Positions 2,688 through 41,902 of a stretch of 41,902 nucleotides of DNA are shown here, piece after piece. Below the pieces are notes generated by a model. The model saw only the letters and a list, made by a program, of their open reading frames with translations. It ran no database searches and had not been told where the DNA came from. Position 1 is the stretch's first letter, and the number at the start of each line of letters is the position of its first letter. The stretch covers positions 1-41,902 of the forward strand of contig JALJEE010001086.1 in the NCBI GenBank assembly GCA_023231475.1, read 5' to 3'. The position numbers were made by a program, and so were the translations under genes. This stretch comes from Seison nebaliae. Lineage: Eukaryota.

Positions 2688-4421
2688 ATGAAATGGCAAA
2701 AACGATTATACAGTTTCATCAAAATATTCGGTCCCGCTTATTTTCTCGCTACTGCATATATCGATCCGGGAAATTTGGAGGCCGATTTAGTCGTCGCCAC
2801 CGTCACGAAATATAAAGTAGAAATTTTAATTAAAATTTTGAAACATTTTTGAAAAAATGAAAATTGCAGTTCTTATGGCTCTTATTAATATCGATCTGTA
2901 GCTCATTCTTCATTCAACATCTCACACTTAAACTATCTTTGATTAGCGGACGATGTTTGGGAGAATTATGTCGGATCGAATATGAAAAACAGACATCGAT
3001 GACAATTTGGATTGTCATCGAATTGTTAATTAGATTAACGGAAATACAATTAGTCTGCGGAATAACAATTGCAATTCATTCGATGAGTAACGGATCGTTA
3101 ATATTTGCTAATATGGTTGTGAATATTTTTGATATTTTTATTTAAAGATTACCATCAATATGGTCAGTAATCATTGCGAATTTGGTGGTAGTCGGTTTAT
3201 TCATCGTCCAAAAATATTTGATATTAGGAATAGAAATTATTTGTGGAATTATTATTTGTTCGTTATCAATCGTCTTGATTTATATGGTTAAATTCTAAGA
3301 AATTATTTTAAATAATTTCTTTAATTAATTGTAATTATTTAATTAATTTTCTCATTATCAGTATAGTAGTATTAATCCACCACAAACGGAGATATTGAAA
3401 GGATTGTTTATTCCATGGTTCGAAATTGACAAGGCCGAATTGGCAAACGGACTAATCGGATCCATCATAATCCCACATACATTATTCATTTATTCTGGAA
3501 TAAGTGCTTCTCTTAACGACGAATATATCATAATGAAAGAGAACATTACGTCAACAATGACAAAACATAATATCCAATCGATTATTATCATCATTATAGT
3601 TCTATGTTGGAATATCTTCATTTTCACTACATTCGCTCAAGCTGTTCCTGATAATACTGTCACTCTATTTGATGCCGTTAGTATTTCATGGAAATTTTAT
3701 CATATGTGATTTTCCCCACAGACAAAAGCCATAGGAGCCACCTATGGGGATCATATTCAGATGTTCTGGTTGGTAGGATTATTCTTTTGTGGGATTGGTA
3801 GTATCATCACATTATCGAATGCACATATCCATATCACTGCTGCCTTTTCCGGTGTTTCCATCAATTATTGGAAATATTTAATTCCAACCAAATTCATCAC
3901 ATTCATTCTCACCATATTAATCGTTTCACAAAACATCGAAAAATTAGATACGGTAATCATTTGGATAAACATTTTACAAGCATTTTGCATTCCATTTGTG
4001 GCCTATCCGTTACTACATTTCGTTCGTTCTAGACGGATTATGGGATCATATGTCGTTTCGAAGTTTCTAGATTATTAACTCGAATTTGATTTCTCATTGA
4101 ATTTAAGGTTTGTGATTGTAATCGGTTGGATAATATGTATCAGTTCATTAATATGTAATTTGATCGAATATATCATGTTTATGGTTAATTTCTGTCTTTG
4201 AATTAATTGCTGAAAAAAAGTTGTCAAATTCTTTTTAGTTAAATCAAAATTCGAAGTGGATCTTGACAATTTGTGTTTTATTTTTATTTCCTTACACTCT
4301 ATTCATCGGAAGATTGGTTAGAATTTCTTTTCAAAATTTTTATTGGTAAATTTCATTCTAACGATTACAGATAATTGGAAATAAGAATTATTATAATTTA
4401 AAAGTTAATTTTTTAATATAA
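2688..4421 (+). CDS. Divergent Nramp/SLC11 metal transporter
   Basis: GPAYFLATAYIDPGNLEAD (TM1 DPGN), LWLLL, GSIIIPH (TM6), FWLVGLFFCG and RRIMGSY motifs. Introns 2817-2869, 3097-3147, 3287-3361, 3677-3721, 4063-4107, 4184-4238 and 4317-4370 keep the frame. Start and last exon are less certain. Confidence 0.9.
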
Positions 4422-4581
4422 TATTAATAATTTGGTTTTGATGATAGAGAAAATTTTATTATATTATTCGACATGATACTAATTCAATTGATTCGTTCCA
4501 ACGACAAAAATCAGAATATTTCGATGAATTCTATACCCAAAATTTAATTAACGATGGTTCGTTTTTCATATTCGTCATTTT

Positions 4582-6303
4582 CTATTCACTTGCCGTTGTC
4601 TCTTCGGGGTCGCCTGTAGATTTTTCTACTGCCGCTGATGCTTCCTCATTAGATGGAGATGATTCTTCTCCGGGAGAACTTTCGGGACTTTCAGAAGTTG
4701 GGACTCCTGCCGATGATTCTGGTCCACCTGATGATTCCGGTCCTGGAGATGAATCCGGCCCTCCAGATGATTCGGCTCCTGGTGATGAATCCGGCCCTCC
4801 AGATGATTCGGCTCCTGGTGATGATTCTGAGCCAGGTGATGAATCAGGTCCGCCAGAAGATTCTGCTCCAGGTGAAGAATCTGGTCCATCTGACGATTCT
4901 GGACCGGTAGAACTCTCACCAGCAGCTGTGGATGAATCTGGTCCTGGTGAAGAGTCTAATCCTACACTAGATCCTTCAGCAGGTGAACTATCAAGAGCAC
5001 CGCTTGTCATTCCTGATGATTGTTGATCGTCAGTTGATTCAGCTGATAAGGTAACATCAGTGGGTCCGGTTCCTTCCGAACCCATATTACTACCAATTGT
5101 TGTAAAGATACCTTCGTCTAAAACCATACCATAAGGTAAAGTGAATGTGTAACCAGGTGGCATCGTACGACCACCAGGTAATGTAAACCATTGAGGAAGT
5201 GTGTACACCTTCGGTGTTGTTGTAGTAACGAAGAAGTTGGGAGGTAAAGTACCTCCATTTGGTAAGGTGAATATATAACCTGGTGGCATTGTACGATTTC
5301 CGGGTAAAGTAAACCATGGTGGTAATGTATAATAAGGAATTGTTGGAGTTGTTTCAAATATTCTTGGATCCATCGTTTGACCTGGTGGTAGTCTAAAAGT
5401 AAAACCAGGAGGTAATGTTCGTCCTCCAGATAGTGTAAACCAAGAAGGCAAAGTATAAACTCCAATATTTGGTTGGGTGACTAAATTGGCTGGATTTGGT
5501 AATTCCAAATTCGGCAATCCCGGTAACATATTTTCAATAACTAGTGGCCCTCCTGGAAACCTGGTGTACATTCTATTAATCGCAGTAGTTCCTCCAATGA
5601 CTGGAGGTTTGACGTAATCAAACAATGAGAATGGTTTAGCTGTAGTACCGTAAGGAAGGGCATTTGGTATTAATTTAATTGTAGTTTTCTGTGCTTGAAG
5701 ACCTGGTATGTTCAATGATTTACCTGCACACGCATATCTGACCTTTTAATAAAATTAATTTTCATTTTCTATCGAATAAAATAAACATTTATTGAATGTC
5801 TTCCTCCATTTGATGATTTACTTACAATAATCGCTCTACCTGAAGGATAGAAAAGTGTATTAGGTGATGGTTTCACATTGTCCTTACAAAATCTGGCTGG
5901 TATCGGACTATCTATCGTCACGATAGTTATTCCGTCTCCAATCGAACAACTTCCTGTTTGGAAACTTTGAACTTGGAGATATAATGACTAAATTTAAAAA
6001 TTAATCATTCAAATTGATATGAAACGAAAATGAATGAACCATCGGCAAGTTTGTTTTAGGATTAATTGGACATTCGATAGTTCGTCGACATACGTAAGGT
6101 AATTGATCATTTGGTATTTGAAGAGTATCTTCGATTTTACCAGCTTGTTCTCTCAACACCGATTGACATGGTATGGAATGATAGAGTCGTTTTATTCTTT
6201 TACCGAATAACGATTTGAAAAGAGAGAACGAATTTGATGAATCGATTAAATTCGTAATAATTAAAAAATTTATCAATAATATTATTTCATATTTCACTAA
6301 CAT
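4582..6303 (-). CDS. Secreted protein A: signal peptide, KRIKR site, divergent CUB-like domain, three 42-aa xTLPxG repeats, acidic Ser/Gly/Pro tail
   Basis: Exons 6303-6040, 5987-5787 and 5742-4582 (introns GTTCAT..TAG, GTTTAT..AAG). Cys pattern and intron positions align with paralogues B-D. Confidence 0.75.
4722..4960 (-). repeat. Coding 18/36-nt tandem repeat (PDSSPGAESSGG-type)
   Basis: Exact 36-nt tandem duplication at 4748-4783/4784-4819, with degenerate copies on both sides. Confidence 0.9.
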
Positions 6304-6503
6304 TTTCTGATAAATTTTCTAAATCTCCTATAAATGAATAACATCATTCTCTTTTGTAAAGGAATTTCACTTCTTTGTTTGCATCAGATTTATCATCTAA
6401 AATTTAGAAGTCTTTTTCTTCTGGACTTTTAATAAACTTGCTAAAATATTCATTAGCAAATTTATAAGTTTTTTTTTTTCGATAAATAATCGACAAGAAA
6501 AGA

Positions 6504-7594
6504 ATGAAATTGTCATTATACTCTCTCCTTTTTCTTTCGTTTGTCGCGTCCACTTTCATGGATGTGATCGACAATTCTGAAGTGAATAACATCGAACAAT
6601 TCACAAAATTATTCTCCTCTAAATTCCACATAAAAGACACGATAAAAATGTTTGAGGATATCAAACAATATCAGTTACGTGCAAGTGGAACTGATAATAT
6701 TATTGTGCCATTTTGTCAGAAGATGTTGAACAATGAAGCTGGCATTATTTATACGAGTATTACGATTAATCAATATAATCGTCCATTCACTTGTACACGT
6801 ACCATTGATTGTCCAATCGTCAATAATAGGAAAATGGTTTTGTTGGATATATCAAAAACTTTTCTTTAATTTTCAATTTTAGCATCTTTATGTGTTTCTC
6901 AAAGAATTATCCAATGTGAATTGTAAGATGAATGATAGAGTGATTATCAGATCACCGAATAATGAACAACCGGCGAAATATTGTTCGGATGATGTTCCGA
7001 TTTATCCAAGAATTATGTTATTCTTAAATGGTCAAGCTGAATTGGAATTTAATACAGATAATCTCGGATTCAAACAAGCTCAAGTTAAATAAGAAATAAA
7101 TAATAATTTTAATTGAAAATGTCTTTTATAAATAAATATTCTCTCTCTCATTTTTTTGATAGTTGAGATATGCTTGTTCTGGACATACGATCGATGGAAT
7201 TACTGTTCCGCCATTATCCCAACCAGTCTCCATGAGTTTAATGAAAAGAACAACGTTATTAACGAGAAGTATATCAACTACTTCAACATCTTCGACAACA
7301 ACAGCACCACATCGTTTCTTCACTAATTTCATGAATGGACCACTGATTGTTGATGTGAATATACCGACATTCCCTAATGTTGACATTGGACATCCCCAAT
7401 CAGTGAAAGGAAGACAACGTGATGATAACAATCAAGGGAATAAATTTGGAATTAAAAATTTGCAACATGAACGAACAACAATCCGATGGACGACGAAAAC
7501 AATGAATAAAAACATAAAATTCCTATTTAAAACTCGTCGTTCTTCCACTCAACTCCCATTAGGTGTCACCTTTCCAAATTTCATTTTGAATTAA
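6504..7594 (+). CDS. Secreted protein B: signal peptide, divergent CUB-like domain, Thr-rich tail
   Basis: Exons 6504-6836, 6883-7083 and 7163-7594. PFCQ...PFTCTRTIDCP...C...YC...GQAEL...RYAC aligns with A, C and D. Confidence 0.75.
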
Positions 7595-7604
7595 TTCTAT
7601 TAAA

Positions 7605-8485
7605 ATGAAAATTGTCATTTCTTTATTACTTCTTCTCTCACTCACTAAATGTGCGTTAGTACGAAAACGTCGAGCTGTCCTCAATGTAACACCGTTTTGT
7701 CAAACACCTCCATTGACTGATGGATTAGGTGAAATAAAAACGGAAATTACAATTGATCAAACCAATAATCCATTTTATTGTCGTCGTGATATTGTTTGTC
7801 CGACTGATGCCACTACATTCCGTCCACAAGTTCTCCATAAAATTTCAATAAAAATTTATAAAAACACATTTCTTCTCTCAGGGACTACAAGTTCGAGTGG
7901 ATCGATTTCAAGCTAATCCTTGTGCTACGAATGATCGATTGGAATTTTTGTCATTCTCTTACGGAAAACAACAATTTTGTGTTGGTGGTAATATGCCGAC
8001 ACAAATCTACACATTTCCTGAAGGAAGATTATCAATCATCTTTCGTGCATATTCCAATGGAGATAAATTCGCTAATGTTAAACTATATTTTAAATAGAAA
8101 ATATTTGAATTTTAACTCAAAATATTTAAATCAATTTTTGAAATAGATTCAATATATTTGTGCACCGATGCAATCGCCAGTGACCGATTCCGTTCCTCAA
8201 ACAGAGAATACACCACCTACAATTGGAATTAATCCGACATATACCGTGCCCAGTTGGTTTACCAATCAGAACGGATTGACATTCCCTCCAGGATTCACAT
8301 TTACTATGGCACCTGGACAAGTGTATAATCCGAATCTTTTTACGACAGCCGCTTTCGATTGTGTTCGAGATAAATGTCACGGAAATGCCGATCGATGTGT
8401 CAAAACAGATTTCGGAGAAGATATTTGTTTATGTTCTCTCGGATGGTATGGATACGACTGTACTTTAACTTCCCCACAAACTTAA
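7605..8485 (+). CDS. Secreted protein C: signal peptide, RKRR site, divergent CUB-like domain, one xTLPxG-type repeat, C-terminal EGF domain
   Basis: Exons 7605-7829, 7882-8076 and 8147-8485. EGF pattern CVRDKCHGNADRC...CLCSLGWYGYDC. Confidence 0.8.
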
Positions 8486-8627
8486 ATGGAAAAATTTCTT
8501 CTCTCTCGATCATTCACATCGATCATATTATATATCAATTTGACATTTTCTAATAATAAAAATCTATAAAATTCCTATCATCATTTCCATCATCATTCTT
8601 TTATGTTCACTCTCATTCATCTCAATC

Positions 8628-9566
8628 ATGATTCTTCCAAAAATCGTTTCATTCAATTATTTAATCCTTCTCATTAATATCATTAATTGTTCATTACTTC
8701 TTCATAATAATAACGATATCGATTGTAACGATAATTGTTCATCACAACAATTATTGAAAAAAGATAAATTATTACAAAGTCTTCTAATGAGATTGTCAGG
8801 AGGAATAGGAAGATTAAATCAACTTCCTCCTCATCAAATGATCGAGCCAAAATGCAATACGTTAACTATCAACGAATTAGAAGGAGATATTAAATTCCGT
8901 TTGGAAATTAATCAATTCAATTCACCATTTCATTGTAAACGTCTTTTTCAATGTCCCCCATCAAAACAGAATCATCATAAATTACAACAATTAATTCTAA
9001 TAATTCCTCCTATGGAAATCGAATGTCAATCCAAACTCGATTGGCAACTTCTTCTTGTCACACCTGATTCAGATATATCATTCAAATTTTGTCCTTCAAC
9101 TTTATTATTAGCGGATAATATTCGATTATATTTCCCATCAGGACGTGCCGCTGTCACATACCAATTATCATCAAACGGATTTTTAGATAATCATGTTAAA
9201 TTTTCTCATTATTATCATTCTTAATTATCGATGAATTTTTAGTTCAAATTCGAATGTGAAGAACCGATAGAGAAAACGAACGAAGGAATGGGAAGAAATG
9301 AAATAATTAAATTAATTTCATCAAAAATTAAATCACCTTCACTCACAACCACTCTAAAACCATCAACTACAACTCTCTCTAAAATTATTCAAACCACAAA
9401 AATACCAATAAAATATCATTATCAAACACAATTCATCCGTTCACATTGTTCACCATATCCATGTCTTAATAACGCGGATGGATGTATCAATCTTTCAAAC
9501 ACATTTATCTGTCTCTGTAATGACGCTTATCGAGGCGAACGATGTGAACTTCTAATTGAGAAATGA
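8628..9566 (+). CDS. Secreted protein D: signal peptide, divergent CUB-like domain, Thr-rich linker, C-terminal EGF domain
   Basis: Exons 8628-9194 and 9243-9566. EGF pattern CSPYPCLNNADGC...CLCNDAYRGERCE. It has the second family intron and lacks the first. Confidence 0.8.
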
Positions 9567-9700
9567 TTTTATTCTCTCATTTTTTTTCTTTTTAATAAAA
9601 TTTCTGTGACGAATTTCCAAAAAACAATTCCATCGAATAAGTGAGAAATATTAATGAACTTTTCAATTTTAACGAACAAAATTAGAAATAAAAATTAGAT

Positions 9701-10247
9701 TTATGATTCGGCTGCTTCCTCATTCACATCTTTATCCATATTCACGCTAAAATATTGGAGTTTGTAACTGTACTTCTTCTTAGCGATAACTCTCAACCAA
9801 TCTCTCAAATTACTTCTTTTCAAATATTTCTTCGTTAAATATTTCAAATATCTGAAAAAAAAAATTTTTTTGGGAAAAGTTTGAAAATTTCATAAGGAAA
9901 TAAATTTCAAAAATTTAAGAAAAACCTTTTTGACATTTTTCCTTTTGGAGTCACAATTATTTTCATTTCTGATTGATCTGTGGTAACGGTGAATAAATCT
10001 TTATTGTTCAATTTTCCATCCATTTTAATACGTTCGATCAAGAAAGTTTTCTGAGAAAAGAATCTCATCAAATCAATTTTAAAGGAAAACTAACGAAATT
10101 ATCAATAAGAAAGATTCCGTCATCAACTGGTGTTGTACAATCGATCACATATTTCACTACGTGTTTCGAGAGGTGATTCGCTTTCTTCTTCTTATCACCT
10201 GGGACAATCTTAGCTGCTGCCGGTTTCTCCATTTTCACATCTGCCAT
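9701..10247 (-). CDS. RPL22: 60S ribosomal protein L22 (eL22); absent from the ORF track because it is split into three short exons
   Basis: Exons 10247-10095, 10050-9926 and 9851-9701 translate to ...[30 protein letters not shown]...[26 protein letters not shown]...YKLQYF, the eL22 signature. Confidence 0.95.
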
Positions 10248-11836: not shown

Positions 11837-14800
11837 ATGTCACATGTACCGTTCGATTCGCAACGTCTAACCGAATTAGCTCATCGCGAATATCAATTGG
11901 GTCATTATGATAAAGCGGAGCAATACTGCACGAGATTATGGGCAAATGACAAGAAGAACACGAACGTTCTCTTACTCATGTCGTCCATTCATTTCCAATG
12001 TGGAAGATTGGATCAGTTTTGAATTTTTCTCATTTTTATTAAAAATTCATAAATTGTTTTCAGATCTGAACGTTTCTGTCAAATTGCTATTTCAGAAAAT
12101 CCAGGATTAGCGGAAGCGTATTCGAATCTCGGTAATGTATTAAGGGAGAAAGGAAGATTATCTGAAGCGTTAGATAAATATCGACGAGCAGTCCATTTGA
12201 AACGTGATTTCATCGACGGTTATATTAATTTGGCGTCAGCACTCGTTCAAGCACAAGATATCGATGGAGCCATTCGTGCTTATCTCAATGCACTTCATTA
12301 TAATCCAGTTAATAATTTCCTTCTCTCAATTCCATCATCTCAATTTTCCATCGATAATAGGAATTGTTCTGTGTGAGAAATGATTTAGGTAATTTGCTGA
12401 AGAACATTGGCCAATTGGAAGAAGCTAAGGTTACTTTAACATCAAAATCTGCTCATTTATTTTTTAATATAAACAAATCATTTCTATTATTCATTTCGCA
12501 TCTAATTATTACTAATTTATCCGCTAATAATTATTGGAAAATAATCTCTAATTATTCATCATCATTTATTCTAAAACCAACTGAAAACTTGTTAATTGTG
12601 GAAAAAAAAAGAAAAAAATGCGTAATTACGAATTATTATTATGATGATTATTATTATTATTATTATCTATAAATTGTTTGTGTTGAATTGTGGATGTTCG
12701 ATTTCATTTCTCATCCATTCGTTCTTTTTCTCCGTTATGGACGATATGATTTGAAATCATTTTAAAAAAATTTATTTAAATTTTTATTCTTTTCAACTTG
12801 GTTTACTTTCATCTCATTTTCTTTTCAAAGAAAAATTCCATTTTAATTTCAAATTGAGGGAAAAGAAACTATAAAAATAAATTTAAGTAAGATCTAAATG
12901 AAGTTAATTGCAAATAAAACTAATTGTGTGTTTCGTCTTTCTTTTCATTTATTTACCACAGTGTTAGAGGTTTGAGATGACAATAAACAAAATATTGATG
13001 GAATATGGTTATTCATCCGAATTATAATAATTACTCATATCAGTGGTCGTCATCTCTATAAGTATTTGTTTAGTAATCACTTATTTCTTCTTTTTCTTCT
13101 TTCTTCTTTATTCAATAGCAAATGAGAAATTTTTTATTTTTTAGTTCTCTCTAAGATTTGTGTCTTTTCATTAAGAATTACTTTCCTCATTAGGAGTCGT
13201 GTCAGCGATGTAAGATGAATGTTGTTCGTTGAGATGTGAATATCAATTGGGAAATTAATTAGAATTTTAGTTGTTGTAGAATTTGCACGCGCAACTCTCC
13301 TGGTGAACCGATTTCGGGCGTAAGAGATCTTCATTTTTTATTTTAAATTATCATTATCCATCATCATCATCATCATATCTTTTTTTTTTTGATAAATTTG
13401 AGAAAAACTCTTCGATAATTTTCTTCGATTTTTCTATGCTGTTTTTCCCGAATGATTTTGATAAAAATTCTTCAAACTTTATCAAAATGTCTTTCGGGAT
13501 GACGATTTCAGTTAATGCGTAAGAATTTTTTCTGGATTTTTTTTCTTCCGTTCTAACCGAGGAAAGCGATCAGTTATGTTTTGATTTTTGAGAAAAAAAA
13601 AACATTTTCCTACCCGTTTCCGCTAACGTAGAGATGTGTCAATTTTAATACTCAAAATTCCAACAGGCATGTTATTTGAAAGCAATTGAAACGAATCCAA
13701 CATTCGCAGTCGCTTGGAGTAATCTCGGATGTGTCTTCAACTGTCAAGGAGAAGTTTGGTTGGCAATTCATCATTTCGAAAAAGTTCAAATTTTTTCTTC
13801 TGTCAATTATCATTTAAAAATTATTTAAATTTAATTTTCTTCAGGCAGTTCATTTGGATTCGACATTTTTCGATGCTTATGTCAATTTGGCGAATGTTTT
13901 GAAGGAAGCGAAAATTTATGATCGTGCCGTCACCAATTATTTGAGAGCACTTCAATTAGCTCCAACGAATGCAATAATTCATGCCAATTTAGCCTGTGTC
14001 TATTATGAACAGCAATTATTGGATTTGGCTGTGGAGACGTATCGAAGAGCGATAGAAATTCAACCGAATTTCCCCGACGCTTATTGTAATTTGGCGAATG
14101 CGTTGAAAGGATTGGGAAAGGTACAGGAAGCGGAAGAATGTTATAATAAGGCGTTAGAATTGAAACCGGAACATGCAGATTCGTTGAACAATTTAGCGAA
14201 TATTAAACGGGAACAAGGACAAATTGATGAATCGATGCGATTATATTGGAAGGCGTTGGAAGTCTATCCAGATTTTGCTGCGGCTCATTCGAATTTGGCA
14301 AGTGTACTCCAAACACAGGGACGATTACAAGAAGCGATTAAACATTATCGTGATGCAATTCGTATTCAACCTACATTCGCTGATGCTTTTTCAAATATGG
14401 GAAATGCATTGAAAGAAATGGGAGAAGTTCATGGAGCGATGAATTGTTATCTTCGAGCAATTCATTTAAATCCAGCATTTGCTGATGCTCATTCGAATTT
14501 GGCATCGATTCATAAAGATTCTGGAAATGTGACAGAAGCTATTCAATCATATCGTACAGCTCTGAGATTGAGAACGGATTTTCCTGACGCTTATTGTAAT
14601 TTAGTTCATTGTCAACAAATCATTTGTGATTGGACAGATTATGATGCTCGAATGAATAAAATCGTTACGACGGTACAAGATCAATTGGATAAAGGAAGAA
14701 TTCCATCAGTTCATCCACATCATTCGATGCTCTATCCATTGACTCATACACAACGACGATTGTTAAGTGGAAAGCATGCACAATTGTGTACGGAACGAGT

Positions 14801-16913
14801 GATGATGTTGAAACATCAGACATTCTCATACGAGAAAGCTCTGGAATTTTCTCCGAAGAAAAATTTCCGTTTGAAAATCGGTTTGGTGAGTTCTGATTTC
14901 TGTAATCATCCAACATCTCATCTCATGCAAAGTATTCCGGGAATGTTCGATCGACGATATTTCGAAGTATTCTGTTATGGTTTATCAGCTCATGACGGGA
15001 CGACATTTCGAGCAAAAATCGAAAAAGAAGTAGAAAATTATGTGGATCTAAATCAAATCAGTTGTAATGGGAAAGCGGTGAATCGAATACATGAGGATGG
15101 TATACATGTTCTCTTGAATATGAATGGATATACAAAAGGTGCAAGAAACGAAATATTTGCATTGAAACCTGCACCAATTCAAATTATGTGGTTAGGTTAT
15201 CCTGGTACTTCTGGTGCGTCATATATGGATTATATTATTCTTGATCGAACAACTGCTCCATTAGAATATGTGAAACAATATTCAGAGAAATTAGCATATA
15301 TGCCACACACATTCTTCATTGGAGATCATGCACAAATGTTTCATCATTTACGAAATAAATTATCATTATCACGACCAGAAGATGTGGAGCAAGCACAACA
15401 TTCACCCGAATCATATATTCGAGATAATGTGGCAGTTTATAATCATCCAGATTTCGATGAATTAATTCCAAAAGTGAAATCTGCAATAAAAATCGAACAA
15501 GAAACCGTTTCATGGAATGGAGAGAATGTGAAAGTTCCATTCTATTTCTTACCATTAACACCATTAGATACGATTCATGGACAATTACAAGTCATTCAAG
15601 AAACAGCCGTCCAACAACAACAACAAACAATGGCACAATTAAATGCACAAGTTCAACAACAGACTAGTAATCCACAATTACAACAACAACTTATCCAACA
15701 ACAACAACAATGTCAACCGATGACGATGCATCAAATAATTTTAGATGCCGATTTACCTGGTGTTCATAATGGAACAACAATTATGCATACATCACCGAAA
15801 CATGCGACTGGTGAAATTACACCAAATTTTGGAATTATTACGACGAGGAAACAATATGAATTACCAGAGAATGCTATCGTTTTTGCGAATTTTAATCAAT
15901 TGTATAAACTCGATCCGCCAACAATGAAATTATGGTGTCGAATCATTCTCGATGTTCCCAATTCTGTACTTTGGCTCTTGAAATTTCCACCAGCTGGTGA
16001 ACCAAATCTCATACAATTCGCTCAGAAAATGGGAGTGGAATTAAATCGAATAATCTTTTCCAATGTCGCATCAAAAGAAGAACATGTTCGACGTGGACAA
16101 TTAGCAGATGTTTGTCTCGATTCACCATTATGCAATGGACATACGACGAGTATGGATATGTTATGGGCTGGAACTCCCGTCATCACTTTACCGTTAGAGA
16201 CGTTGGCAAGTCGAGTAGCTGCGTCGCAATTAATGGCATTAGGTTGTCCCGAATTGATTGCGAAAGATGAAGATGATTTTGTGAGAATTGCTGCTAAATT
16301 AGGAACAGATTTGAATTATTTACAAAAAACGAGAGCCAAAGTTTGGCATGCTCGAATTCATTCTCCTTTATTCGATTGTAGTTTATATACGAGAGATTTG
16401 GAACAATTGGCGAAACGTGCATGGGACACATATGAAGTTGATACGACAAAAGAGAATATGATTCATATAACTGATATTGAATCGTTGAGTAAGGAAGAGT
16501 GTGAGGAAGCGAAAAATGGAAGTATTGTCGGTGGGAAATCATTAAAACAATTAGCGGATGAAGCACAACAAGCAGCAGCTGAATTTAAAATGAAGAAAGA
16601 TCAACAAGATCAAACACAATTAACACAATTCGATAATATTTCGAAAAGTCTCAAAATTATCAATTCATTTCAACAATCGCCTAAACAAGAACAACAACAA
16701 CAATATGAGATGCCTCTCGCCCCAATTAATGGTACGAACGATGGTTCTAACATGATGAAACATGATCAACAAAATCTCCCTCAACAACAACAGCAACAAC
16801 AACAACAACAACATTTAAATGGTAATGGACCATCGAATAATAATAATAATAATGCAAATAATGGATTAAGAGAAATCAAACAAGAATTGGAAATGTTAAA
16901 TGGAAAAGTTTAA
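11837..16913 (+). CDS. OGT: O-GlcNAc transferase (TPR repeats plus GT41 catalytic domain)
   Basis: Exons 11837-12015, 12064-12307, 12361-12429, 13667-13783 and 13845-16913. TPRs ([18 protein letters not shown]), [26 protein letters not shown] and CNGHTT motifs. Confidence 0.98.
12430..13666 (+). promoter_or_regulatory. Unusually long OGT intron (1237 nt), candidate detained intron with decoy/poison micro-exons
   Basis: Lies between ...LEEAK and ACYLKAI..., flanked by 69-nt and 117-nt exons. Contains AG-flanked segments ending in GTAAGA and a hairpin at 13446-13499. The intron is well supported; the regulatory role is inferred. Confidence 0.6.
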
Positions 16914-17428: not shown

Positions 17429-20400
17429 TCAACATCGACTGATGTTGCTTGGTGAGAACATGTTCTGTTTCTTCTGTACAACGACAATCGATTCGTCTGT
17501 GGTGGATAAAGAATTTTGTAGATCATCTGACAATCCCGACGTCGATGACGACGATGATGATGATGTGTTGGATGAATTATTTCTATAATCATTCATCTGG
17601 ATATGTTGTGGATAATTTTGTTGGTTGTTATTTTGAGTGGAAGTTGGATGGAATGGTAATTGATTAATGATATTTCCAGGAATTGAATTCATTTGAATAA
17701 TTTGTTGATGAGTGTGAATGTTTGATGTTGGAAAGCGTTGGATGAAATTACCATTCATTAATTTATGATTTTGAGATTGATTATGTGGGAAATTATATTG
17801 GAGTGGCATAAGAGATGGATGTGGAATAATCGTCGGACGATGAAGATGTTGTGGCATTGACAAATGAATAGATGGATTATCTTCTGTATAATAATTCGAT
17901 TCCATACAATTACTGATGGTGCCACTCTGTAATTGACTTTCGATTTTTTTTGTTTTTTTCCCATTTCTCTTCTTCGGTTTCTGTGGAATATCTTTTAAAA
18001 TTTTTGATGGTATTTCATCATTCGATTTTCCTCTTTGCTTCTTAGCTGATTGAGATAAAGATGAAGTTGAAGTTTGGAGAAGATATGGACGTGCATCAAC
18101 ATCATAACTTGTTCTTTCAGAAACATCAGTTTCGGTGGAGACCATACGATTACTATTGAATCGTCGACGGAATTTCTGTTTGAGGAAACGAGACGATTTT
18201 CTTTCTAATTCTCCTGGAAATGTTCTCAGAAAGTTATATGTTCCATGAGATCGTCGTCGTAGATGACTATATCCGAGAACGATTAAGAAAATAATCATTA
18301 ATGTGGAGAATGCCGTCGCTCCAGCAATATAGATACCTAGCCATGCCGAATCAGTCATTCGAATTCGATCGTCGGCGAGAAAATCGAATAAATTTCTTGA
18401 ATTTGGTGAAATTTCTGTTGTTGTTGTTTTTGTTGTGGTGTTGAAATTGAAAAAATTATTGTTCATTTCCGAAGATTTATTGAGTGTGGTGATTGACGGT
18501 TTAATGGGCCAATTATCAGGTTCGTTTTTCACATTGTGAAAAATGGGTAATTTATCATCAGTTTCAATGGGAAAGTCATATGTTGTTGTGGTTGTAGATT
18601 GATGAGGAAATGTTTCATCAACAAATTTTCCTTTCTCTTTAAACTTTTCCTTAAATTTATTATAATCATTCAAATTCACTTCATATTCTGCTGTTGTACT
18701 AGCAAATCCATTTACACGTTTAGACGATGAATATTCATTAAATCGATGAGAATTGAATTGAGAGATTGTTGAACGTTTTCCCTCTATGTTTTCACGTTGA
18801 ATTGCGTAAGAGAAAGGGAAAGTGAAAACTGAGAGATTTGTGGGATTTCTAGTAAACTGAAATTGTCGACGAGGAGTAGGGGAAATGTTGTTTGGTTTAT
18901 GTAAATTAGCTTCATAAAAATTTGGTAATAAATTCTCTTCGGGTTCTCGTATAGGTGAGTTTGTTAGAAATTTACCATAATTATCATATTGATCGTAAAG
19001 TGTGGTGGTGTCAGGAAAATCATTGAATAATAGAAGATTGTTAATTGTTGTGTTTTGTCGATGTTCCTGTGTAGTTGAATTAGAAAAATTGTCATGATGA
19101 TGTCGAGAACAATTGAGACATTCAATTATGGGAAATTGGGAAATTGGGGTGAATGTGATTGAGTCTTTCTTTTTCGAAGTTGAACTAACATCAAGTGAAG
19201 ATGTGGATACTTCCTTAAACTGAGGCTTTTGTGTCATCATTATCGAAGTAGTAATATTAAGAAACGGTGTAATTGGTTCGGTGTAATTGAAAAGATCGTT
19301 ATAATAGCTGGATGATGAGACAATCAGTTTTTTCTGCTTCGGAATTTTAGTGGGAACTTTATGATTATTCCCTTTTCCCATTGCCTTATATTTCGTTAAA
19401 CTTTCTTCAGTAACATTTCTTAAATGAGACTCTCGATCACTTACAGTTGCTTTCTTTAACGATTCGTATGTTTGATAATTTATTAAATTTGACGATTCAG
19501 TTGACGAATGATTTGGAATAAGAGAAGATTTATCAGTTTTCATTTTTTTCATGGGAAAGATGGTGCTGTGAAATAAAGTTAATTTTTTAGTCTTATCAAT
19601 AACGTTTGGGGAATGTATTTCCGTTATATCTGGTACTTCATTCTCATAGAAAGCAACTTCTCGATTGGTCGGTAAGATGATATTTTCTTTATCGAACTTA
19701 TGGTTCGAACTATTAAGTGGAACTAATGATGATGAAAGTTGATCATTATTAGAAATTGCTTCATTATTTATCGTTTCCGTTGGAAGTGTTTCAATTTTTT
19801 CAGAATAAGATATATGTTTGTCTGATGATCTAGATGATGTTTCGGGTATTCTTGAGAACAATTTTGTAGGATGTTGCGATATTGATGAATTTGTTATAGC
19901 ACTTTCGCCACTTTCTGGAAACGTTGTCATTGTTGATAAGATTAATGGAATTGTTGTAGGAGACATCGATATTCGTTTCGTTGAATTTATTTTTTTCGTC
20001 GTTGAACTCGAAAATGTGGATGGTATTCCTTCCGATAATGTGGAAGATGATATCACTGAAGATGTTGATGATAATGTGGTTGTTGATGTGGTTGTTGAAT
20101 TTGATGATATTGTGGTTGTTAATGTGGTTGTTAATGTGGTTGTTGATGTTGATTTGGAAGATGATGATTTGGAAGATGATGATGATGATGATGATGATGA
20201 TGATAAAAATGATGATGATAAAGATGGTGAGGATGAGACTGAAGTCGATTCTGTGGGAAGTTTGAATATAGCTGGATTGTTGATGTTTTTTGAAATGATT
20301 ATTTGTGGTTCAGTTAAATTGGTGATATCTGTCAATTCTTTTACATTCTTTTCACCAATACTTTCTGCTAATGAACTATTTTTTTTGGTTGAATTATTCT

Positions 20401-20581
20401 CACGTTCTGGAGTTGGCAGTGGAATTGATGTTCTGGAATAGATAATCTCTTGTCTATTCATGACAGTATTGATAGCCTCCACGGTAGCAACCATGGTAAC
20501 ATTACTTATTCGACTTTTTACCAAAATGAAGTGAATATAAAAGATGATTAGTTGAAGATGCCATTTATGAAGCATATTCAT
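17429..20581 (-). CDS. Large single-exon type I membrane mucin-like protein (Ser/Thr-rich ectodomain, TM, about 280-aa low-complexity cytoplasmic tail)
   Basis: First ATG at 20581 (the ORF track starts at a TTG). Hydrophobic leader WHLQLIIFYIHFILVKS, many NxS/T sites, TM WLGIYIAGATAFSTLMIIFLIVLGY followed by RRRSHGTY. Confidence 0.8.
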   Translation of the reverse strand: MNMLHKWHLQLIIFYIHFILVKSRISNVTMVATVEAINTVMNRQEIIYSRTSIPLPTPERENNSTKKNSSLAESIGEKNVKELTDITNLTEPQIIISKNINNPAIFKLPTESTSVSSSPSLSSSFLSSSSSSSSSSSKSSSSKSTSTTTLTTTLTTTISSNSTTTSTTTLSSTSSVISSSTLSEGIPSTFSSSTTKKINSTKRISMSPTTIPLILSTMTTFPESGESAITNSSISQHPTKLFSRIPETSSRSSDKHISYSEKIETLPTETINNEAISNNDQLSSSLVPLNSSNHKFDKENIILPTNREVAFYENEVPDITEIHSPNVIDKTKKLTLFHSTIFPMKKMKTDKSSLIPNHSSTESSNLINYQTYESLKKATVSDRESHLRNVTEESLTKYKAMGKGNNHKVPTKIPKQKKLIVSSSSYYNDLFNYTEPITPFLNITTSIMMTQKPQFKEVSTSSLDVSSTSKKKDSITFTPISQFPIIECLNCSRHHHDNFSNSTTQEHRQNTTINNLLLFNDFPDTTTLYDQYDNYGKFLTNSPIREPEENLLPNFYEANLHKPNNISPTPRRQFQFTRNPTNLSVFTFPFSYAIQRENIEGKRSTISQFNSHRFNEYSSSKRVNGFASTTAEYEVNLNDYNKFKEKFKEKGKFVDETFPHQSTTTTTYDFPIETDDKLPIFHNVKNEPDNWPIKPSITTLNKSSEMNNNFFNFNTTTKTTTTEISPNSRNLFDFLADDRIRMTDSAWLGIYIAGATAFSTLMIIFLIVLGYSHLRRRSHGTYNFLRTFPGELERKSSRFLKQKFRRRFNSNRMVSTETDVSERTSYDVDARPYLLQTSTSSLSQSAKKQRGKSNDEIPSKILKDIPQKPKKRNGKKTKKIESQLQSGTISNCMESNYYTEDNPSIHLSMPQHLHRPTIIPHPSLMPLQYNFPHNQSQNHKLMNGNFIQRFPTSNIHTHQQIIQMNSIPGNIINQLPFHPTSTQNNNQQNYPQHIQMNDYRNNSSNTSSSSSSSTSGLSDDLQNSLSTTDESIVVVQKKQNMFSPSNISRC

Positions 20582-21162
20582 ATATTCTTCTAAAAATTTT
20601 TTTGAGATTCCAAACAAGTAATTTAGTATAAGTGAGAAAAAACAGTATATATATTTTTTACATCAAAGTGGAAGAATTAATTAATTCTCGTTTTGAAACG
20701 GCGAAAAAAGTATTGACGCGTAACAAATGACTCTGGTTTTTCTATCAGACAGAAACGTTGAGAATGATATTCATTTCGGTTATGTCTATAGCGATTAGTT
20801 ACGATCAACTAGCAGATAATTGTCAAAATAATTTGAGAGTAGATGCGAATTAGGAGGGTGGTCGATGATTCTTTATTTTTTTGAAATTTGAATCAAATTA
20901 TTCTTTTCACTGACTTGACGTGGACTCACGAAAAAAGAGAAACGTTAAATGATTCAGCTGAGTGAAGGGCATCTTAACTATCCTCACTCAATACCAACAG
21001 CAACAACAACAAGAACGACAAGAAGATAATAAACAATAACCGCAATAACCAATAAACCGGAACGACCAACAACAGATACATGACATATATTTAGAAAGAT
21101 ATGATCTATTCAAAAATTTATAAAATTGGATGATGGTCAATAAAAGGAAAATGAAGAGAAAG

Positions 21163-21657
21163 TTAATAATTTGTAAAATGAATGAGGAGGATGTTGAGGA
21201 ATAAATAAACGACAAATGAATTTGAAGGTGTCACTATTCCCCCTCGATTGCATCCATGAGTTGAGCAGAAGCAATAGTAATCGCGTCGTGTTCCATCGTT
21301 GAACTCCGCACATGACCAGTCAAGTGAACGAAATGGTATTGTTATCAATGTCGAGCAACTTCGTATTATTGTGTATTTGGTGGATAAGTTGTTTAATTGT
21401 GCAACTTTCTTCACACATTGCCCACTGCATGGTCGTAATAATGTTGAGGTAATATTGAATGGATCGTCACATGTCTTGTCTAGTAGACTGTTGCAAACAT
21501 AACATTGAAGATCGTTATCATTATTCAATTTGTACATTTCCTGAATATAACATTCTGCAGGTAATTATTATTTGATTGGGAAAATTCCAAAAAAAAATTA
21601 ACTGTTCAATGGAATATTTATTAAAATTATAACAAATAAGAAATGTGGAAAATCCAT
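21163..21657 (-). CDS. Ly6/uPAR three-finger protein of the Quiver/Sleepless type, probably GPI-anchored
   Basis: Signal-peptide exon 21657-21603, intron 21602-21555. LQCYVCNS..CDDPF..C..CVK..RSC..C..CFCSTHGCN plus a hydrophobic C-terminus. Confidence 0.88.
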
Positions 21658-27304: not shown

Positions 27305-28052
27305 ATGGGTATATTCCAATCGAGAAAGAAGAATAAAATTACAGAAGAAGATAAAGCGATTTTGGTTGTCATTTCAATTAACATACATGTAAATTAATTT
27401 TGTTTGTAGCAATTGAAAAAACAACGAGATACTATTCGAATATATCAGAAACGAATCACTACTCAATTGGAGACTGATCGAGAGAATGCTCGAACATTAC
27501 TCTCCAAAGGCCAAAAAGAGTTTTTAATTAATTTCATTCTTCAAATCTTATTTTCTCCCCATTTCATAGTCGAGCTCTGTTGTTGTTAAAGAAGAAGAAA
27601 CGACAAGAAACTTTATTAGATCGAACAGATAATCAACTACAACAATTGGAGAATTTGGTTTTCAATTTTAATATTATGGGATAAATAATAAAAATTTGAT
27701 TTAGGTTCATGACATAGAATTCTCTCGAATTCAAGTCGATGTCGTCAAACGATTGAGGGAGGGAGCGGATGCATTGAAACATTTGAATTCGTTGTTCGAT
27801 TTGGATGATGTTCACGATATTTTAGCAACGACATCGGAAGCGAAAGAATATGAAGAAGAACTTAATCAAATAATGCATATCGAACCGATGAGTTCGGATG
27901 AAGAAATGGAAATTCAACGAGAATACGAAAAATTGATTGATGAAACAGAGACGATTGATCAATTACCAGCAGTACCTTCCGATGACTTATCGAATAGATC
28001 GAAAGAGAAAAGTAAGAGAAGTGAAAGAGGAAGAATCGCAGTAGCGACTTAA
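27305..28052 (+). CDS. CHMP6: ESCRT-III subunit CHMP6/Vps20
   Basis: Exons 27305-27364, 27410-27519, 27570-27657 and 27705-28052: MGIFQS...ITEEDKAILQLKKQRD...RALLLLKKKK..Q...VHDIEFSRIQ...LPAVP. N-myristoylation Gly2 and a MIM2-like LPxVP motif. Confidence 0.95.
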
Positions 28053-36576: not shown

Positions 36577-37883
36577 GATAATGGTGAACAATTTAAAGAC
36601 TAAAAAATATTACATGAAGAAGGATAAGTTCGTCAGCTAAAGTTTTGAGAGAAAAAAAGTCTTTAAAATTCTTGGAAATTAAAATGCAATCATTGAATTT
36701 TCTTCTACCCAATCAGTTTTATAACATGGAGAACATCACTTACTGGTAAGACGGTAACGAACAAGAAACTATTTTCGGAGCGGATTTTGAAATGTTAAAA
36801 TTAATTGCGAAAATTAAAAATGTGAATTGATTAAAATTTCTGTTTTCCATCAAGGACGAATTCTTAATTTAGCATAGTCGCTCTGCTTTTTTGTAAACTT
36901 TCAATTTGAGCATTATTAATTTACATTTTGGTAACAAATTTATCCTATTAGATGACTTGGTACCGAAAGCAAATTTTAATTCATTAGATTTATTGTTTCC
37001 TATAAGAAATTTTGAATTATGTTAACAAATTACCATTTTCTGTGAAAGTTGCTTCTTCAATTTTTTATTTATCTCTTTGATTTTTGAAACTCCCACATGG
37101 ATATACGTAATATGTATGTTGTAATATTAATTAATTGCATGATAAACTCTTCAAAGACACAAAAAATAAAGGGCTTAAAAATTGAATTCTATTAGGTTCA
37201 TGATCCTTTTTATCATTCTGAATTAAAATATTCAAATGAAAAATTTTACACGTTCAACTTTATCTTACAAGTTTAATTATAAATATGTTCATTTTTTTAT
37301 AATTTTCTTATTTAATAATTATATCTCTCTTTCTTAATGATTGATAGTTGTAGGAAAATGTGATGTGTACGATATCTATGGAATATAAAGGATGTTATGT
37401 ACATACATATCTTGAGATAAATAAGGAATATTAATGATTTCTATATAGGATTTAAATAATTATATTTTAAAAAATTATACCACAGTTTGAGAGCACGTGT
37501 AAATTTTTGATTTTCCAAACATTAATTTTTTGAAGATAGCTTAATATTTGAAATTAATGCCTTTGTCTATTGCTGTACAATGTGGTTATGGTTCATTTGT
37601 TTCAAGTAAGATATATTTGTGGTCCATGAAAGATTGTTAATATGATTTACATGTAGTCAAACGTTTATTTTTACAGTGGCACATTTGTCTATAAATCTCG
37701 AAGTATTATATTCATTATTTCACTTAAAGATAAGTTGGTCGATTGGTTAGATGCGCGCAATTTATTCTTTTATTTGAAATGATGTTTATTTTTGAGTGAT
37801 GTGCGGCCAAATTTCTGTATTACGCCTTCCCCATTACTCACGAACGATCTAATGATTTGTATCTTTTATTCATTTTTCGACAG

Positions 37884-37919
37884 AAAAAAAAAAAAAAATT
37901 TAAAAAAAATCCAAAAAAA
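37884..37919 (+). promoter_or_regulatory. Oligo(A) tract in the PABP 5' leader (candidate autoregulatory sequence)
   Basis: A15-TTT-A8-TCC-A7 ending 45 nt upstream of the ATG, directly after a pyrimidine-rich CAG acceptor-like site at 37881-37883. Confidence 0.55.
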
Positions 37920-37964
37920 TCTTACACATTTTAGTGGCTAATTTGAAACAATATTCAACATATC

Positions 37965-39893
37965 ATGTCTTCTCAAATATCGAATGGAACAGGTGCAGTA
38001 GATCCCCCGAAAGCAGCCAATGCAAATCCCACGTTTAGGGCTCGCAACATGGCTGCATTGTATGTGTCGAATTTAAGTGAAAATGTTAAAGAGACGGAAC
38101 TTCATGGAATCTTTCATAAATATGGTCGACCAGAATCGGTTCGATTATGTCGCGATGCAGCCGGCAAATCATTGGGATATGGTTATGTCAACTACTTATC
38201 GGAATCGCAAGGTATTCTTTTTCTAAGAATTTCGTTTCATTTCTTTCTCTCTCTCCCACCCTTTTCTAGCAAGCGAAGCGATGTCTTCTCTCAATTTCAC
38301 TGTTCATTTTGGAAAGGAAATCCGAATCATGTGGAGTCAACCGAATCAGCAAATTCGCAAGAATGGAGTTGGAAATTTAATAATTCGCAACTTGCCCAAG
38401 ACGATGACGAACATTCAATTATATCATACTTTCAGAAAGTTTGGTACGATCATGTCTTGTCGAATTATGATGGATGAGAACAATGAATCTCGTGGTTATG
38501 GATATGTTCATTATACAGTGGAAGAAGATGCGAATAAAGTGATTGAGACAGTCAATGGAAAGACGATTGAGAAATGTGTGATAAAAGTCTCGAAATTCGT
38601 CCCTAAAGAAAAGAGGAAATCTGTAGAGAATCATTTCAACAATGTTTATGTGAAGAATTTCAAGGATGGATTAGATAGTGAGAGTCTCGCTAATCTCTTT
38701 TCCAAATTCGGTCCGATCACTCGAGCTAAAGTCATGAATGATGACGAAGGTCGAAGTAAAGGATTCGGTTTCGTTTGCTTCGAGAAATGGGAAAGTGCCG
38801 AACAGGCAGTTGAACAAATGAATAAATATATGTTGGAAGTGAAAGATACAACAGCGGTTAATGGAGAACCGAAAGTTCTACGATACGAATTATTCGTTGG
38901 AAAAGCGATGAAGAAAGCTGATCGTGAAGCGGCATTGAAGAAACAACATGCTCATTCGAAAGGCAATGGAATCACTTTATTAGTAAGATACATCAATGAA
39001 CAGGTCACTCAGAAACAAGTGCAGGATTATTTTTCGAAAATTGGTAAATTGAGTTCAGTGAATCTTCAAATGGATTCCAATGCTAAGACACAAAATGGTT
39101 TTATTGTTTACGAGAATCGAGAGAATGCCATTGATGCAATGGAACAGTTAAGTGGTACAACATTGGGAGGAAGTACAATTTATATTGTTGTTCAAAAATC
39201 GGATGAAATTAATGAATTAACACGACAACAACAAATGATGTATGGACGTCCACCATATTATCAGAACGGTAATGTGTTCACATCCGGAATTCCCAATATG
39301 CCACCGACATTTGTTGTGCCACCGGGAAATTATCGATTCCCTAATCCACGACCACAATGTTAGAGATTTGTTTTAAGTTTTTCATTAATTATTTTATTTA
39401 GACGCAATGACTCGAAACGATCAAGCTTTCCGACAAGGTAACGGACAAGTTCCGTCGATGGTGGTCAACAATGCAAACATGTCGTCGATGCCATATGGAA
39501 TGAGAGGTGGTATGACAAACCAACCTAACCAAGCCAGAAGTTAATTACTAGAAATAATTGAACAATTTTCTAAATAAATAAATTTCTATTAAAACTCCAT
39601 TTTTATGTTGACAATTGTCATTGTTATGTTCTCAATTTCTGTTTGGAACGAATCAACTTCTACCACACCATTTAGTCAGCGTTCAACCAAACATTCATCC
39701 CTATTCGGTTAACAATCTAAACGAACAAGGGCGAAGACCGATTGATCAGATTATTAGCCGAATTATGAATGAAGCGGGACCGATAAACCAAGAAATGATG
39801 GTAAAAATCACTAATAAGTGTGTAGGCATGAAAGCAGAGGAGTTTGAAGATCCAAAATTCTATCAAGAACTCATGAATGACATTAAAAAATGA
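37965..39893 (+). CDS. PABPC: Divergent cytoplasmic poly(A)-binding protein (four RRMs, Q/P/M linker, degenerate MLLE)
   Basis: SLGYGYVNY, IRIMWSQ, GVGNLIIRNL, SRGYGYVHY, FNNVYVKNF and SKGFGFVCF are PABPC signatures. Introns 38212-38269, 39359-39401 and 39540-39675. Confidence 0.9.
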
Positions 39894-40773
39894 ATCGAGA
39901 CTCCAGGAAATCGATAGACATATTGAAAGATTTCATTTTCCACATCCTATGAATTCCAGAAATAATATTCTTTCCCGTCATTTACTTAATTTGTTCCTCT
40001 TTATCTTTTTTTGCTGAAGATTTCTTTCATTAATCTAACACTTTTTTCTAACATCGATCTATCTCTATACCTAATAATCATCAATCATTCTCCTGATTGA
40101 TTATTCTTTTTCCTCTTTTTCTCATTCTTCCTCTTCTTTGTCATCATTTTTCCAATTCACTATAATTTTGAATGGACATTCTCCCTCTACCTTTCCCAAC
40201 AAACTAACCAATTAACCATTGTCTCATTATCATCAAATGAATGATGTATCTGACAAGATTTATTGGTTTCTTTTCAAATTTTTATTCTTTTCATTGTTGT
40301 CTCTAAACAATTCTTCTATATTTTCAAAAATCATTATTAGCCACTAAATTTTTCTTCATCTCAATTCATTCTCCAATTATCAATTATTCACTCAACATTA
40401 AATGATTTCACCAATTTAAGAACACAGATTGAACCACTATTAGGCTACTGTATTCAGACAACAATTGGCTAATTCTTGTCATGTGCGGAACATTCGCCAA
40501 GAGGGCATAATAAATTTTGAATTTTAAGTGAAATATGATTCCTTATCAGAAGATGCTCTTTGTTTTATTACCACCATAACGTTACTTGTTTCCAATTTTA
40601 CAATAAGACGTAGTTCAACTGAATAAAAAAGCCATATCAGTAAAATATAATTTTAAAAAAAAATGAACATCATTTAACATTTATCATTTCAAACGATTCT
40701 TGTTAAACGAGCCAGGTTTCGACCTTTAGTTTGTAGAATGTTAAATGATTTCCATACCGGACTAACTGATTAA

Positions 40774-41360
40774 TTATATCTTACAAGCAAAAAACGATAT
40801 TTTAGCACACGCTTTTAAAGGAAAACGCTCTTCCACAATGTGATTTGAGGTCCGAACATTGTGAGTGATAGACACCTCTTCAGAATTAACAATGGAAACA
40901 TTGTACAGAAGATCCGTTATACTTACATTAAAGAAACGATATTGCCGTTTGATTTGACACCTGGATCTCCTGGATACATGGACGATTGTTTTCATTTAGC
41001 AGCTTGAAATTTCAAAAATTTGATTTCCTATAGGAAAAGATTAACTCTAATCCTCCACACACAGAGATTCCTAAACCTAAAAGCAAACGACCGAGAATTG
41101 TACTTCTACGAACACCGAAATTAATAGCCGGTTGCCAATGACGAGACGGATTCATAACAGAGATGATAAACAAATCTCAGAAAAGGAGCGTCGATATTAT
41201 AAAGGCGTAAATAATTTAGAGGGAATGAAACGTCAAAAGCTTTAGAAGCATCAAGAAAAAGAAGATTTAGAAAAACCTTCTGTTCTTTAGCGTAAGAAAT
41301 AATGAAGCGAAAAGGGGCGTGCTTAGCGCAGTGGTCTACGCACGTTCCACGCATATTTGC
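40774..41360 (-). mobile_element. Decayed non-LTR retrotransposon (LINE) reverse transcriptase fragment
   Basis: RFIISYAKEQKVFLNLLFLDASKAFDVS...LRLYNIDAPFLRFVYHL matches the LINE RT region around the (F/L)D..KAFD motif. Stops and frameshifts follow and no YADD motif is visible. The left boundary is uncertain. Confidence 0.7.
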
Positions 41361-41539
41361 GAAATAACGTACCCTGCAGCTCGATAGAGTCATATTGGGG
41401 CGTGCGTAACACAGTGGTTTATGCACGTTCCCAAAGCCACAACGATGGGACATACGTCTCACTGAGATCTCCTACCACTGACCGTACAGGAGATCGATCA
41501 GAAAATTTATCCCGACGGGAATTTAACTTAAAAAAAAAA
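41314..41539 (+). ncRNA. Candidate structured RNA element (duplicated hairpin, several further stems, terminal A10)
   Basis: 35-nt imperfect direct repeat at 41314-41348/41397-41431, each copy folding as a 13-bp stem. An 8-bp perfect stem at 41466-41473/41488-41495. G-T pairs favour the + strand. Transcription is not shown. Confidence 0.5.
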
Positions 41540-41902
41540 GAATGTGGCAATGGTATAATTTAGTAGATTGTCAACCAATTTTAACATTAAAGATGAGATT
41601 CATATCGAACGACTGGAATTTAGAAAGAGGAATCTAGTTTCGCCTTTTTTTAATTTTTAATTTTAATTTCCTTTCCTGCATATCGGATACTTCCCTTGTG
41701 AGAGATGTATCGTTTGTAATCAAGAGAAATCGAAAATCTTAACAGACATTTCTCTTCCTTCCATGGATGGGGATATGAAAAACTGATTCACTACATAAAT
41801 CTATAATAAATATAATAATAAAAATATAATAAAATAATATAATAAGAATATAAATAAAAAACTAATCTGCTTCGTCCAATAATAATTCTTCATTTTTCTC
41901 CA

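Follow-up and report, generated by a model that had tools for sequence, protein, structure and literature searches.

A SINE-like repeat in the Seison nebaliae genome

The 221-bp element at positions 41315-41535 (+ strand) of contig JALJEE010001086.1 is probably a copy of a quasi-dimeric SINE-like retroposon. It represents one copy of a dispersed SINE-like repeat, delimited by steps in contig depth at ~41315 and ~41539, by unrelated loose contig ends at both edges and by a joint from 41309 to 41536, and its length includes an A tail of ~6 nt. An unclassified SINE or retroelement-related folded RNA was among the readings offered by the original prediction, and it is the one borne out by the multiple dispersed copies, the A tail, the apparent empty site and an A-box at the 5' edge. 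In the mechanism that we propose, the RNA would be transcribed by Pol III, a step for which the balance tips slightly in favour, and a LINE enzyme would then quite likely bind the 3' hairpin and tail and prime at the T-run of the target. LINE DNA has been reported to make up 4.49% of the S. nebaliae assembly, and unclassified repeats 4.34% (PMC8351084). The family is apparently undescribed: neither it nor a kissing loop in a non-7SL SINE was described in the literature searched, from which Repbase, Dfam and most subscription papers lay outside.

The window, meaning the whole stretch of 41,902 nucleotides that was analysed, has 30% GC and contains a single copy of the element, the region of which is its second most GC-rich stretch of 226 nt. 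Seison nebaliae, a rotifer relative, is epizoic. A divergent multi-RRM gene (37966-39893, +), which we read as similar to poly(A)-binding protein, precedes the element by ~1.4 kb. Matches to this gene at ~81-84% occurred in three or more other contigs, all with single-copy depth, which suggests an expanded paralogue family. Further upstream, an O-GlcNAc transferase with a glutamine-rich insert and tail (13854-16913, +) had ~52-55% identity to its best animal matches over most of the searched region. The window also contained a Quiver/Ly-6-like domain exon (21163-21564, -), a Snf7 domain exon (27705-28052, +), a threonine-rich mucin-like coding repeat with 9- and 24-bp periods that is not telomeric (1-850, +), and a frame of 1077 codons (17429-20662, -) without a Pfam match. 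A protein-coding reading of the element itself was rejected, as the open reading frames at 41121-41471 (-) and 41327-41563 (+) had no Pfam family at cut-off.

Copies of the element are dispersed and of different ages

Copies were read from assembled DNA contigs, taken from four sequencing runs for 37500-41902 and from one for 41262-41590. Part of the stretch was present in five of the seven listed runs, and no contig of run X6 aligned on 37500-41902. Summed contig depth in the bin 41322-41468 reached 5960, 5027 and 2899 in runs X1, X2 and X3, compared to 29, 26 and 15 in the unique flank. Depth in X1 was 3000-9900 across 41328-41536 (1863 in one bin) and 88 beyond 41548, so that summed depth inside the element was roughly 100-340 times that of the unique flank, with sharp edges. 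Summed depth is not equivalent to copy number; the value for the tail, 104-110 times single copy, is a rough ceiling, and one contig alone had a depth of 639, ~22 times single copy (X1). Our estimate of the family size is some tens of copies, perhaps about a hundred. Identity to the window copy ranged widely among 180 contigs, with 27 at 99% or more, 48 at 95-99%, 59 at 90-95% and 46 under 90%, and therefore young and older copies both exist. Diverged copies were found in other surroundings, on contigs of 2.7-5.7 kb at depths of 16-30.

SINEs are short (<1 kb), interspersed, non-tandem repeats with a simple-sequence 3' tail of variable length. The element is 221 bp long with unrelated flanks on both sides, and the loose ends behind 41539, found in at least 10 contigs, were A-rich with a mutual agreement of 0.56. 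Loose ends before 41315 (at least seven contigs) agreed with each other at 0.62, and those before 41392 (at least four contigs) had low mutual agreement. At least six contigs with loose ends before 41504 shared the last 35 nt alone with the window copy. The 3' terminal segment at 41504-41535, composed of the hairpin TCCC-GAC-GGGA (41510-41520) and the A tail, is the end common to these contigs with unrelated upstream letters, and is a candidate recognition site for a LINE reverse transcriptase.

Depth was 3800-4300 in the spacer between the two heads of the element (described below) and 3000-3200 in the tail; the similarity of these values suggests that most copies carry both heads. Other contigs lacked parts of the spacer, carried a head of the first type in second position, or had a replaced middle. 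In the last group, a head and the 3' part were kept on either side of joints at 41361->41468, 41371->41463 and 41407->41504. The unit 1 spacer (41349-41396), which contains two small stems, is the most variable part of the family, holding four of the 11 listed variant places as well as the deletions seen in other copies. At two positions the window copy was atypical of the family: C accounted for 6270 of 6357 depth at 41435, and G for 5359 of 5491 at 41487 (X1).

An apparent empty site and a likely target-site duplication

One contig per run joined 41309 to 41536 without the element, at depths of 39.6, 46.3 and 18.5 in X1, X2 and X3, respectively. Five letters fit either side of this joint, and therefore the element is placed at 41315-41535, flanked by AAAAG at 41310-41314 and again at 41536-41540, where it merges with the A tail. 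The AAAAG pair is likely a target-site duplication; we call it likely and not proven because the joint carries the flag 'between: not known' and A makes up four of its five bases. The original prediction described the element as ending in A10. The run is present in the window copy (41530-41539), though not as a single feature, as it likely resolves into ~A6 of the tail and four A of the putative duplication. The 5' end proper may sit a few bases upstream of 41315, because other contigs have ATATT-like letters ahead of heads of either type, and copies with one head and no B-box may exist.

The flank of the element is present approximately three to five times, and the joint therefore reads as a paralogous site without the insertion. 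Taken together, these features point strongly to the element having inserted into a single copy of the duplicated region, with a likely 5-bp duplication at the site. Within the flanks, 40880-41310 and 41540-41700 were present several times and one contig per run joined 38534 to 40941; this region reads as part of a rearranged duplicated block. A second multi-copy repeat was situated at 41699-41782 (bin depth ~1000 versus 29), with loose ends before 41699 and 41703 and behind 41761-41782. At 41267, the window has T whereas all contig depth in the three runs was G (343.6 of 343.6 in X1); the T may be an error of assembly or a private allele.

Insertion in an A/T run with a short or no duplication, together with hairpins near both ends, would also fit a repeat mobilised as DNA, such as a Helitron- or Helentron-type non-autonomous element or a MITE, with the hairpins acting in single-stranded DNA. 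We consider this origin very unlikely, since the ends share no inverted repeat, the stems rely on G-U pairs that work on one strand and the A-rich 3' end varies in length. Helitron end motifs were also absent on inspection by eye.

Promoter signs and the origin of the head

The A-box consensus of Pol III promoters has been given as TRGYNNARNNG (PMC12498455). A perfect match, TAGCGCAGTGG, was found at 41324-41334, 10 nt inside the 5' edge (+10), where it overlaps the loop of the first head hairpin. By chance, about one strict A-box is expected per window (mean 1.39); one within the first 30 nt of the element arose in 100 of 100,000 shuffles of the same composition. In the second head, the highly conserved third position of the A-box is changed from G to A and no good B-box follows. 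Behind the first head, a weak B-box-like site at 41379-41387, 44 nt after the A-box, fits five of the seven positions of GTTCRANNC, a score that is not significant in the window copy alone and is equalled by another site in the spacer. Two sister contigs read six of seven at this site, with the highly conserved G missing in the sister versions. No T4 terminator occurred on the + strand inside the element. Promoter signs that are better or complete in the left unit have been described as the pattern of dimeric SINEs (PMC13023118).

SINEBase recognises a parental RNA by an identity of 60% or more to tRNA, 5S or 7SL RNA across a minimum of 60 nt, or by experimental Pol III transcription, and treats A and B boxes as indication, not proof (PMC3531059). 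We compared the head with tRNAs from 80 of at least 120 loci, 53 of which had a tRNA (45 distinct); these were viral, A-box-selected sequences and not Seison's own RNAs. None of the 45 viral tRNAs reached 60% over 60 columns, a value that 109 of 200 A-box-keeping shuffles did reach, and the best score of unit 1 against this set (46) equalled that of such shuffles (46.1 +/- 4.7). A tRNA HMM matched 41321-41343 alone (E 0.11), ARAGORN found no tRNA genes, and the sequence did not conform to a cloverleaf. The search against Rfam, named as a check in the original prediction, returned no family at the gathering threshold in the window. At E<=10, no tRNA, SRP, 5S, 7SK, Y or ribozyme family matched the element, and the sub-threshold matches were RT-18, mir-2188, DUF805b, Afu_198, Vault and HIV_FE. 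We do not file the element as a tRNA, 7SL or 5S SINE, because its head matches none of these RNAs beyond the A-box.

Compared to quasi-dimeric and dimeric SINEs such as B1, Urop and Alu (PMC3531059), the element is similarly short (221 bp versus a SINE median of 236) and interspersed, and shares a layout of head, body and tail, an A tail, an internal duplication of the head and better promoter signs in the left unit. Unlike them, its ancestry was undetected beyond a stretch of ~23 nt resembling an A-box/D-arm, its B-box is weak, and its head is refolded into one long hairpin.

The lack of detected tRNA, 7SL or 5S ancestry and the weak B-box could alternatively be explained by a short non-autonomous derivative of a LINE that kept the structured 5' and 3' ends of its parent. 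The A-box would then be incidental, and the complementarity between CAGTGGT in the heads and ACCACTG near the 3' end would be a 5'-3' contact inherited from the LINE RNA. Contigs with a head and the 3' part around a replaced middle, and the six or more that share the last 35 nt alone, agree with such an origin, though a SINE that had undergone internal deletion and 5' truncation would give the same joints. We regard a LINE derivative as unlikely: chance seldom places a strict A-box at +10, the left head has this box intact and the right head has it degraded, and no reverse-transcriptase domain was found in 36 scanned ORF queries (some overlapping).

Head duplication and fold

Self-comparison confirmed the two 35-nt copies that the original prediction had reported, at 41314-41348 and 41397-41431. 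They are 83 nt apart and 86% identical (30 of 35), differing at positions 10, 13, 15, 23 and 26. The first forms head hairpin H1 (41314-41348; -16.7 kcal/mol, z -2.87), with a 13-bp stem that includes two G-U pairs and one mismatch, and the second forms H2 (41397-41431; -18.0 kcal/mol, z -4.4). The predicted details of the stems were also recovered when their pairs were listed, namely the use of G-U, the mismatch in copy 1 (pair 10-26, U-C in copy 1 and G-U in copy 2) and the closing pair 13-23, which differs on both sides between copy 1 (G-C) and copy 2 (A-U). The 7-mer CAGTGGT was found in both loops at the predicted places (41329-41335 in H1, 41412-41418 in H2), as was its exact complement ACCACTG (41474-41480) in the third hairpin, H3 (41462-41501), the core stem of which is GATCTCCT/AGGAGATC. 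The small stems listed for the rest of the element are present. One of these, GGGAC-ATAC-GTCTC (41447-41460), had two listed family variants (41452 and 41453), both at loop positions. An outer CTGA/TCAG extension of H3, part of the original description, exists in the window copy and is absent from most others; it is not a family feature, because extra bases occur at 41462-41463 in most of the cover there (one extra base at 41463 in contigs with 251 of 362 depth, ~6 extra at 41462 in others) and A accounts for 665 of 2625 depth at 41501. At 41487, the family G in place of C permits a shifted bulge in H3, and by inspection both registers are possible.

The fold was strand-biased. For 41300-41560, none of 200 shuffles was as stable on the + strand (z -4.64), compared to 11 of 200 on the - strand (z -1.88), and the element alone gave z -4.49 on + and -1.68 on -. 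A single-copy sequence folding no better than shuffled controls, the outcome set in advance as refuting a folded RNA, was not what we observed. Without pseudoknots, the predicted minimum has copy 1 and copy 2 cross-paired with a probability of 0.98, burying both CAGTGGT loops, and the form with two local hairpins lies 4.3 kcal/mol above it. Folding of prefixes indicated that H1 is able to fold ahead of H2 synthesis, and the local-hairpin form could therefore be trapped.

The 11 variant places listed for the family (X1) included none in the three 7-mers or in the lower parts of the main stems. This table is filtered in that it omits differences near contig ends (41487 is absent from it), and it does not amount to a covariation test. 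Finding 0 of 11 in 21 of 221 nt is expected by chance approximately one time in three. This pattern, the strong + strand fold and a weak resemblance of the 5' end to vault RNA raise the possibility that the copies comprise the genes of a functional small RNA made by Pol III, either vault-like or of an unknown kind, and its processed pseudogenes; the structure and loop pairing of this RNA would be under cellular selection. Vault (RF00006) was the sole non-miRNA hint on the 246-nt stretch, matching 41315-41358 with 13.7 bits (E 2.5) over what corresponds to the vault A-box arm, and vault genes are described as carrying internal A and B boxes (PMC7904556). The score is far under the gathering threshold of 34, however, and the alignment deletes 53 central positions. 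Unlike vault RNA, the element has no U-run terminator on the + strand and is multi-copy with an A tail; the repeat has a body, unrelated flanks and a spread of divergence, and the variant count is no different from a frequent chance result. We therefore judge a cellular small-RNA family improbable, somewhat more so than a LINE derivative.

A compact multi-hairpin fold with a possible pseudoknot could also belong to a self-cleaving ribozyme or an endogenised viral untranslated region, both of which the original prediction had entertained. We searched both strands with crude descriptors of our own for a hammerhead CUGANGA-GAAA core or an HDV-like nested double pseudoknot and found no matches, and no Rfam family supported a ribozyme. 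In IMG/VR, the head pattern had no matches. An 18-mer from hairpin 3 had three, in which the likeness was confined to the 18 nt, and a 15-mer from the A-box had 25, none of them a tRNA and none with an Rfam match in the 20 scanned. These 18-mer and 15-mer matches are of the size expected by chance. Exact pattern searches returned no matches in metagenomes (0 and 0) or in prokaryote genomes (0). No viral relative was found in IMG/VR, and the family is spread through the host genome. Neither the viral reading nor, in the searches for known classes, the ribozyme reading gained support, and we consider both extremely improbable. The quasi-dimeric SINE-like retroposon remains our preferred reading of the element.

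A possible kissing loop between the heads and H3

Dinucleotide shuffling of the 3' part produced a 7-mer complementary to the loops in 192 of 20,000 trials; the ACCACTG complement is thus unlikely by chance but not extreme, having been found by looking. ACCACTG was retained in the majority lines of loose ends in X1 (four contigs) and X3 (three contigs). In the predicted fold, its first two bases pair within H3 about half of the time, with unpaired probabilities of 0.48 and 0.45. Freeing ACCACTG together with the H2 loop would cost 4.6 kcal/mol, compared to 7.0 with the H1 loop and 1.9 in an RNA with one head. With a 7-bp helix, the pseudoknot penalty at which the contact breaks even is 8.9 kcal/mol for H2 and 6.5 kcal/mol for H1 in the dimer, and 11.6 kcal/mol for H2 with the 3' part alone. 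Pseudoknot penalties in common models are ~7-10 kcal/mol. Set against these penalties, the modelled kiss would be energetically borderline in the two-head RNA and plausible in a one-head RNA. By inspection, the linkers are of suitable length for a 7-bp loop-loop helix, with 2 nt towards the head and 7 nt towards H3. A nested, non-pseudoknotted helix between CAGTGGT and ACCACTG was rejected, as it lies ~11.6 kcal/mol above the minimum.

The original prediction held that two loops compete for one partner. This was not supported, as the heads are predicted to cross-pair and, if the kiss forms, the second head would be favoured by ~2.4 kcal/mol, making the H2 loop the better predicted partner on sequence and energy estimates. 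Nor is such a contest needed to account for the sequence, because duplication of the head suffices; in our view the second loop is likely to have arisen in this way. A mismatch may be present in some copies at H2 pair 13-23, where G accounted for 447 of 7346 depth and C for 853 of 8789, the two positions being unphased. Overall, we doubt that a 7-bp kiss between H2 and H3 both forms and matters, although if it did it may compact the RNA, as the loop-loop pseudoknot of Alu RNA does.

That pseudoknot is the nearest functional analogy, and an analogy only. In the Alu domain of SRP, a UGU U-turn is described as setting the position of the loop-loop pseudoknot, to which SRP9/14 binds (PMC8137916), and a folded 5' domain of 46 nt has been reported as required for Alu retrotransposition (PMC12199147). 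The element would be alike in that the loop of a 5' hairpin could pair with the loop of a second hairpin in a retroposon-like RNA. Unlike Alu, it had no Rfam SRP match and no UGU in the linker at 41432-41461 (no TGT in the DNA), its kissing hairpins are ~30 nt apart with another hairpin between them, and seven kiss pairs are possible compared to three in human Alu.

Significance for the genome of S. nebaliae

The kissing-loop mechanism is a testable possibility suggested by modelling, and not a result. The strongest version of it, a recently active retroposon whose head derives from neither tRNA, 7SL nor 5S RNA (possibly from a vault-like RNA or a LINE 5' end) and whose mobilisation needs a 7-bp kiss between head and 3' domain, seems to us a long shot. 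Were that use of the kiss in mobilisation true, the element would provide an analogue of the Alu loop-loop pseudoknot that is of independent origin and unrelated in sequence, in a clade reported to have almost no SINEs; if the kiss is not real, it would be an ordinary lineage-specific repeat. The route by which non-7SL SINE RNAs reach the LINE enzyme has been left open (PMC12199147), and this question could be tested directly on a compact RNA in which a 7-bp loop-loop contact is defined.

SINEs are reported as little represented in rotifer and acanthocephalan drafts, and the repeat annotation of S. nebaliae lists 152 SINE hits (13,488 bp, 0.03%), 443 small-RNA hits and 11,273 unclassified hits (PMC8351084). 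In the parts of this annotation considered here, no family sequences are given. Near-identical and diverged copies together with an apparent empty site would show SINE-like retroposition in this reportedly SINE-poor rotifer/acanthocephalan clade, and the family could supply insertion markers for the two reported S. nebaliae strains.
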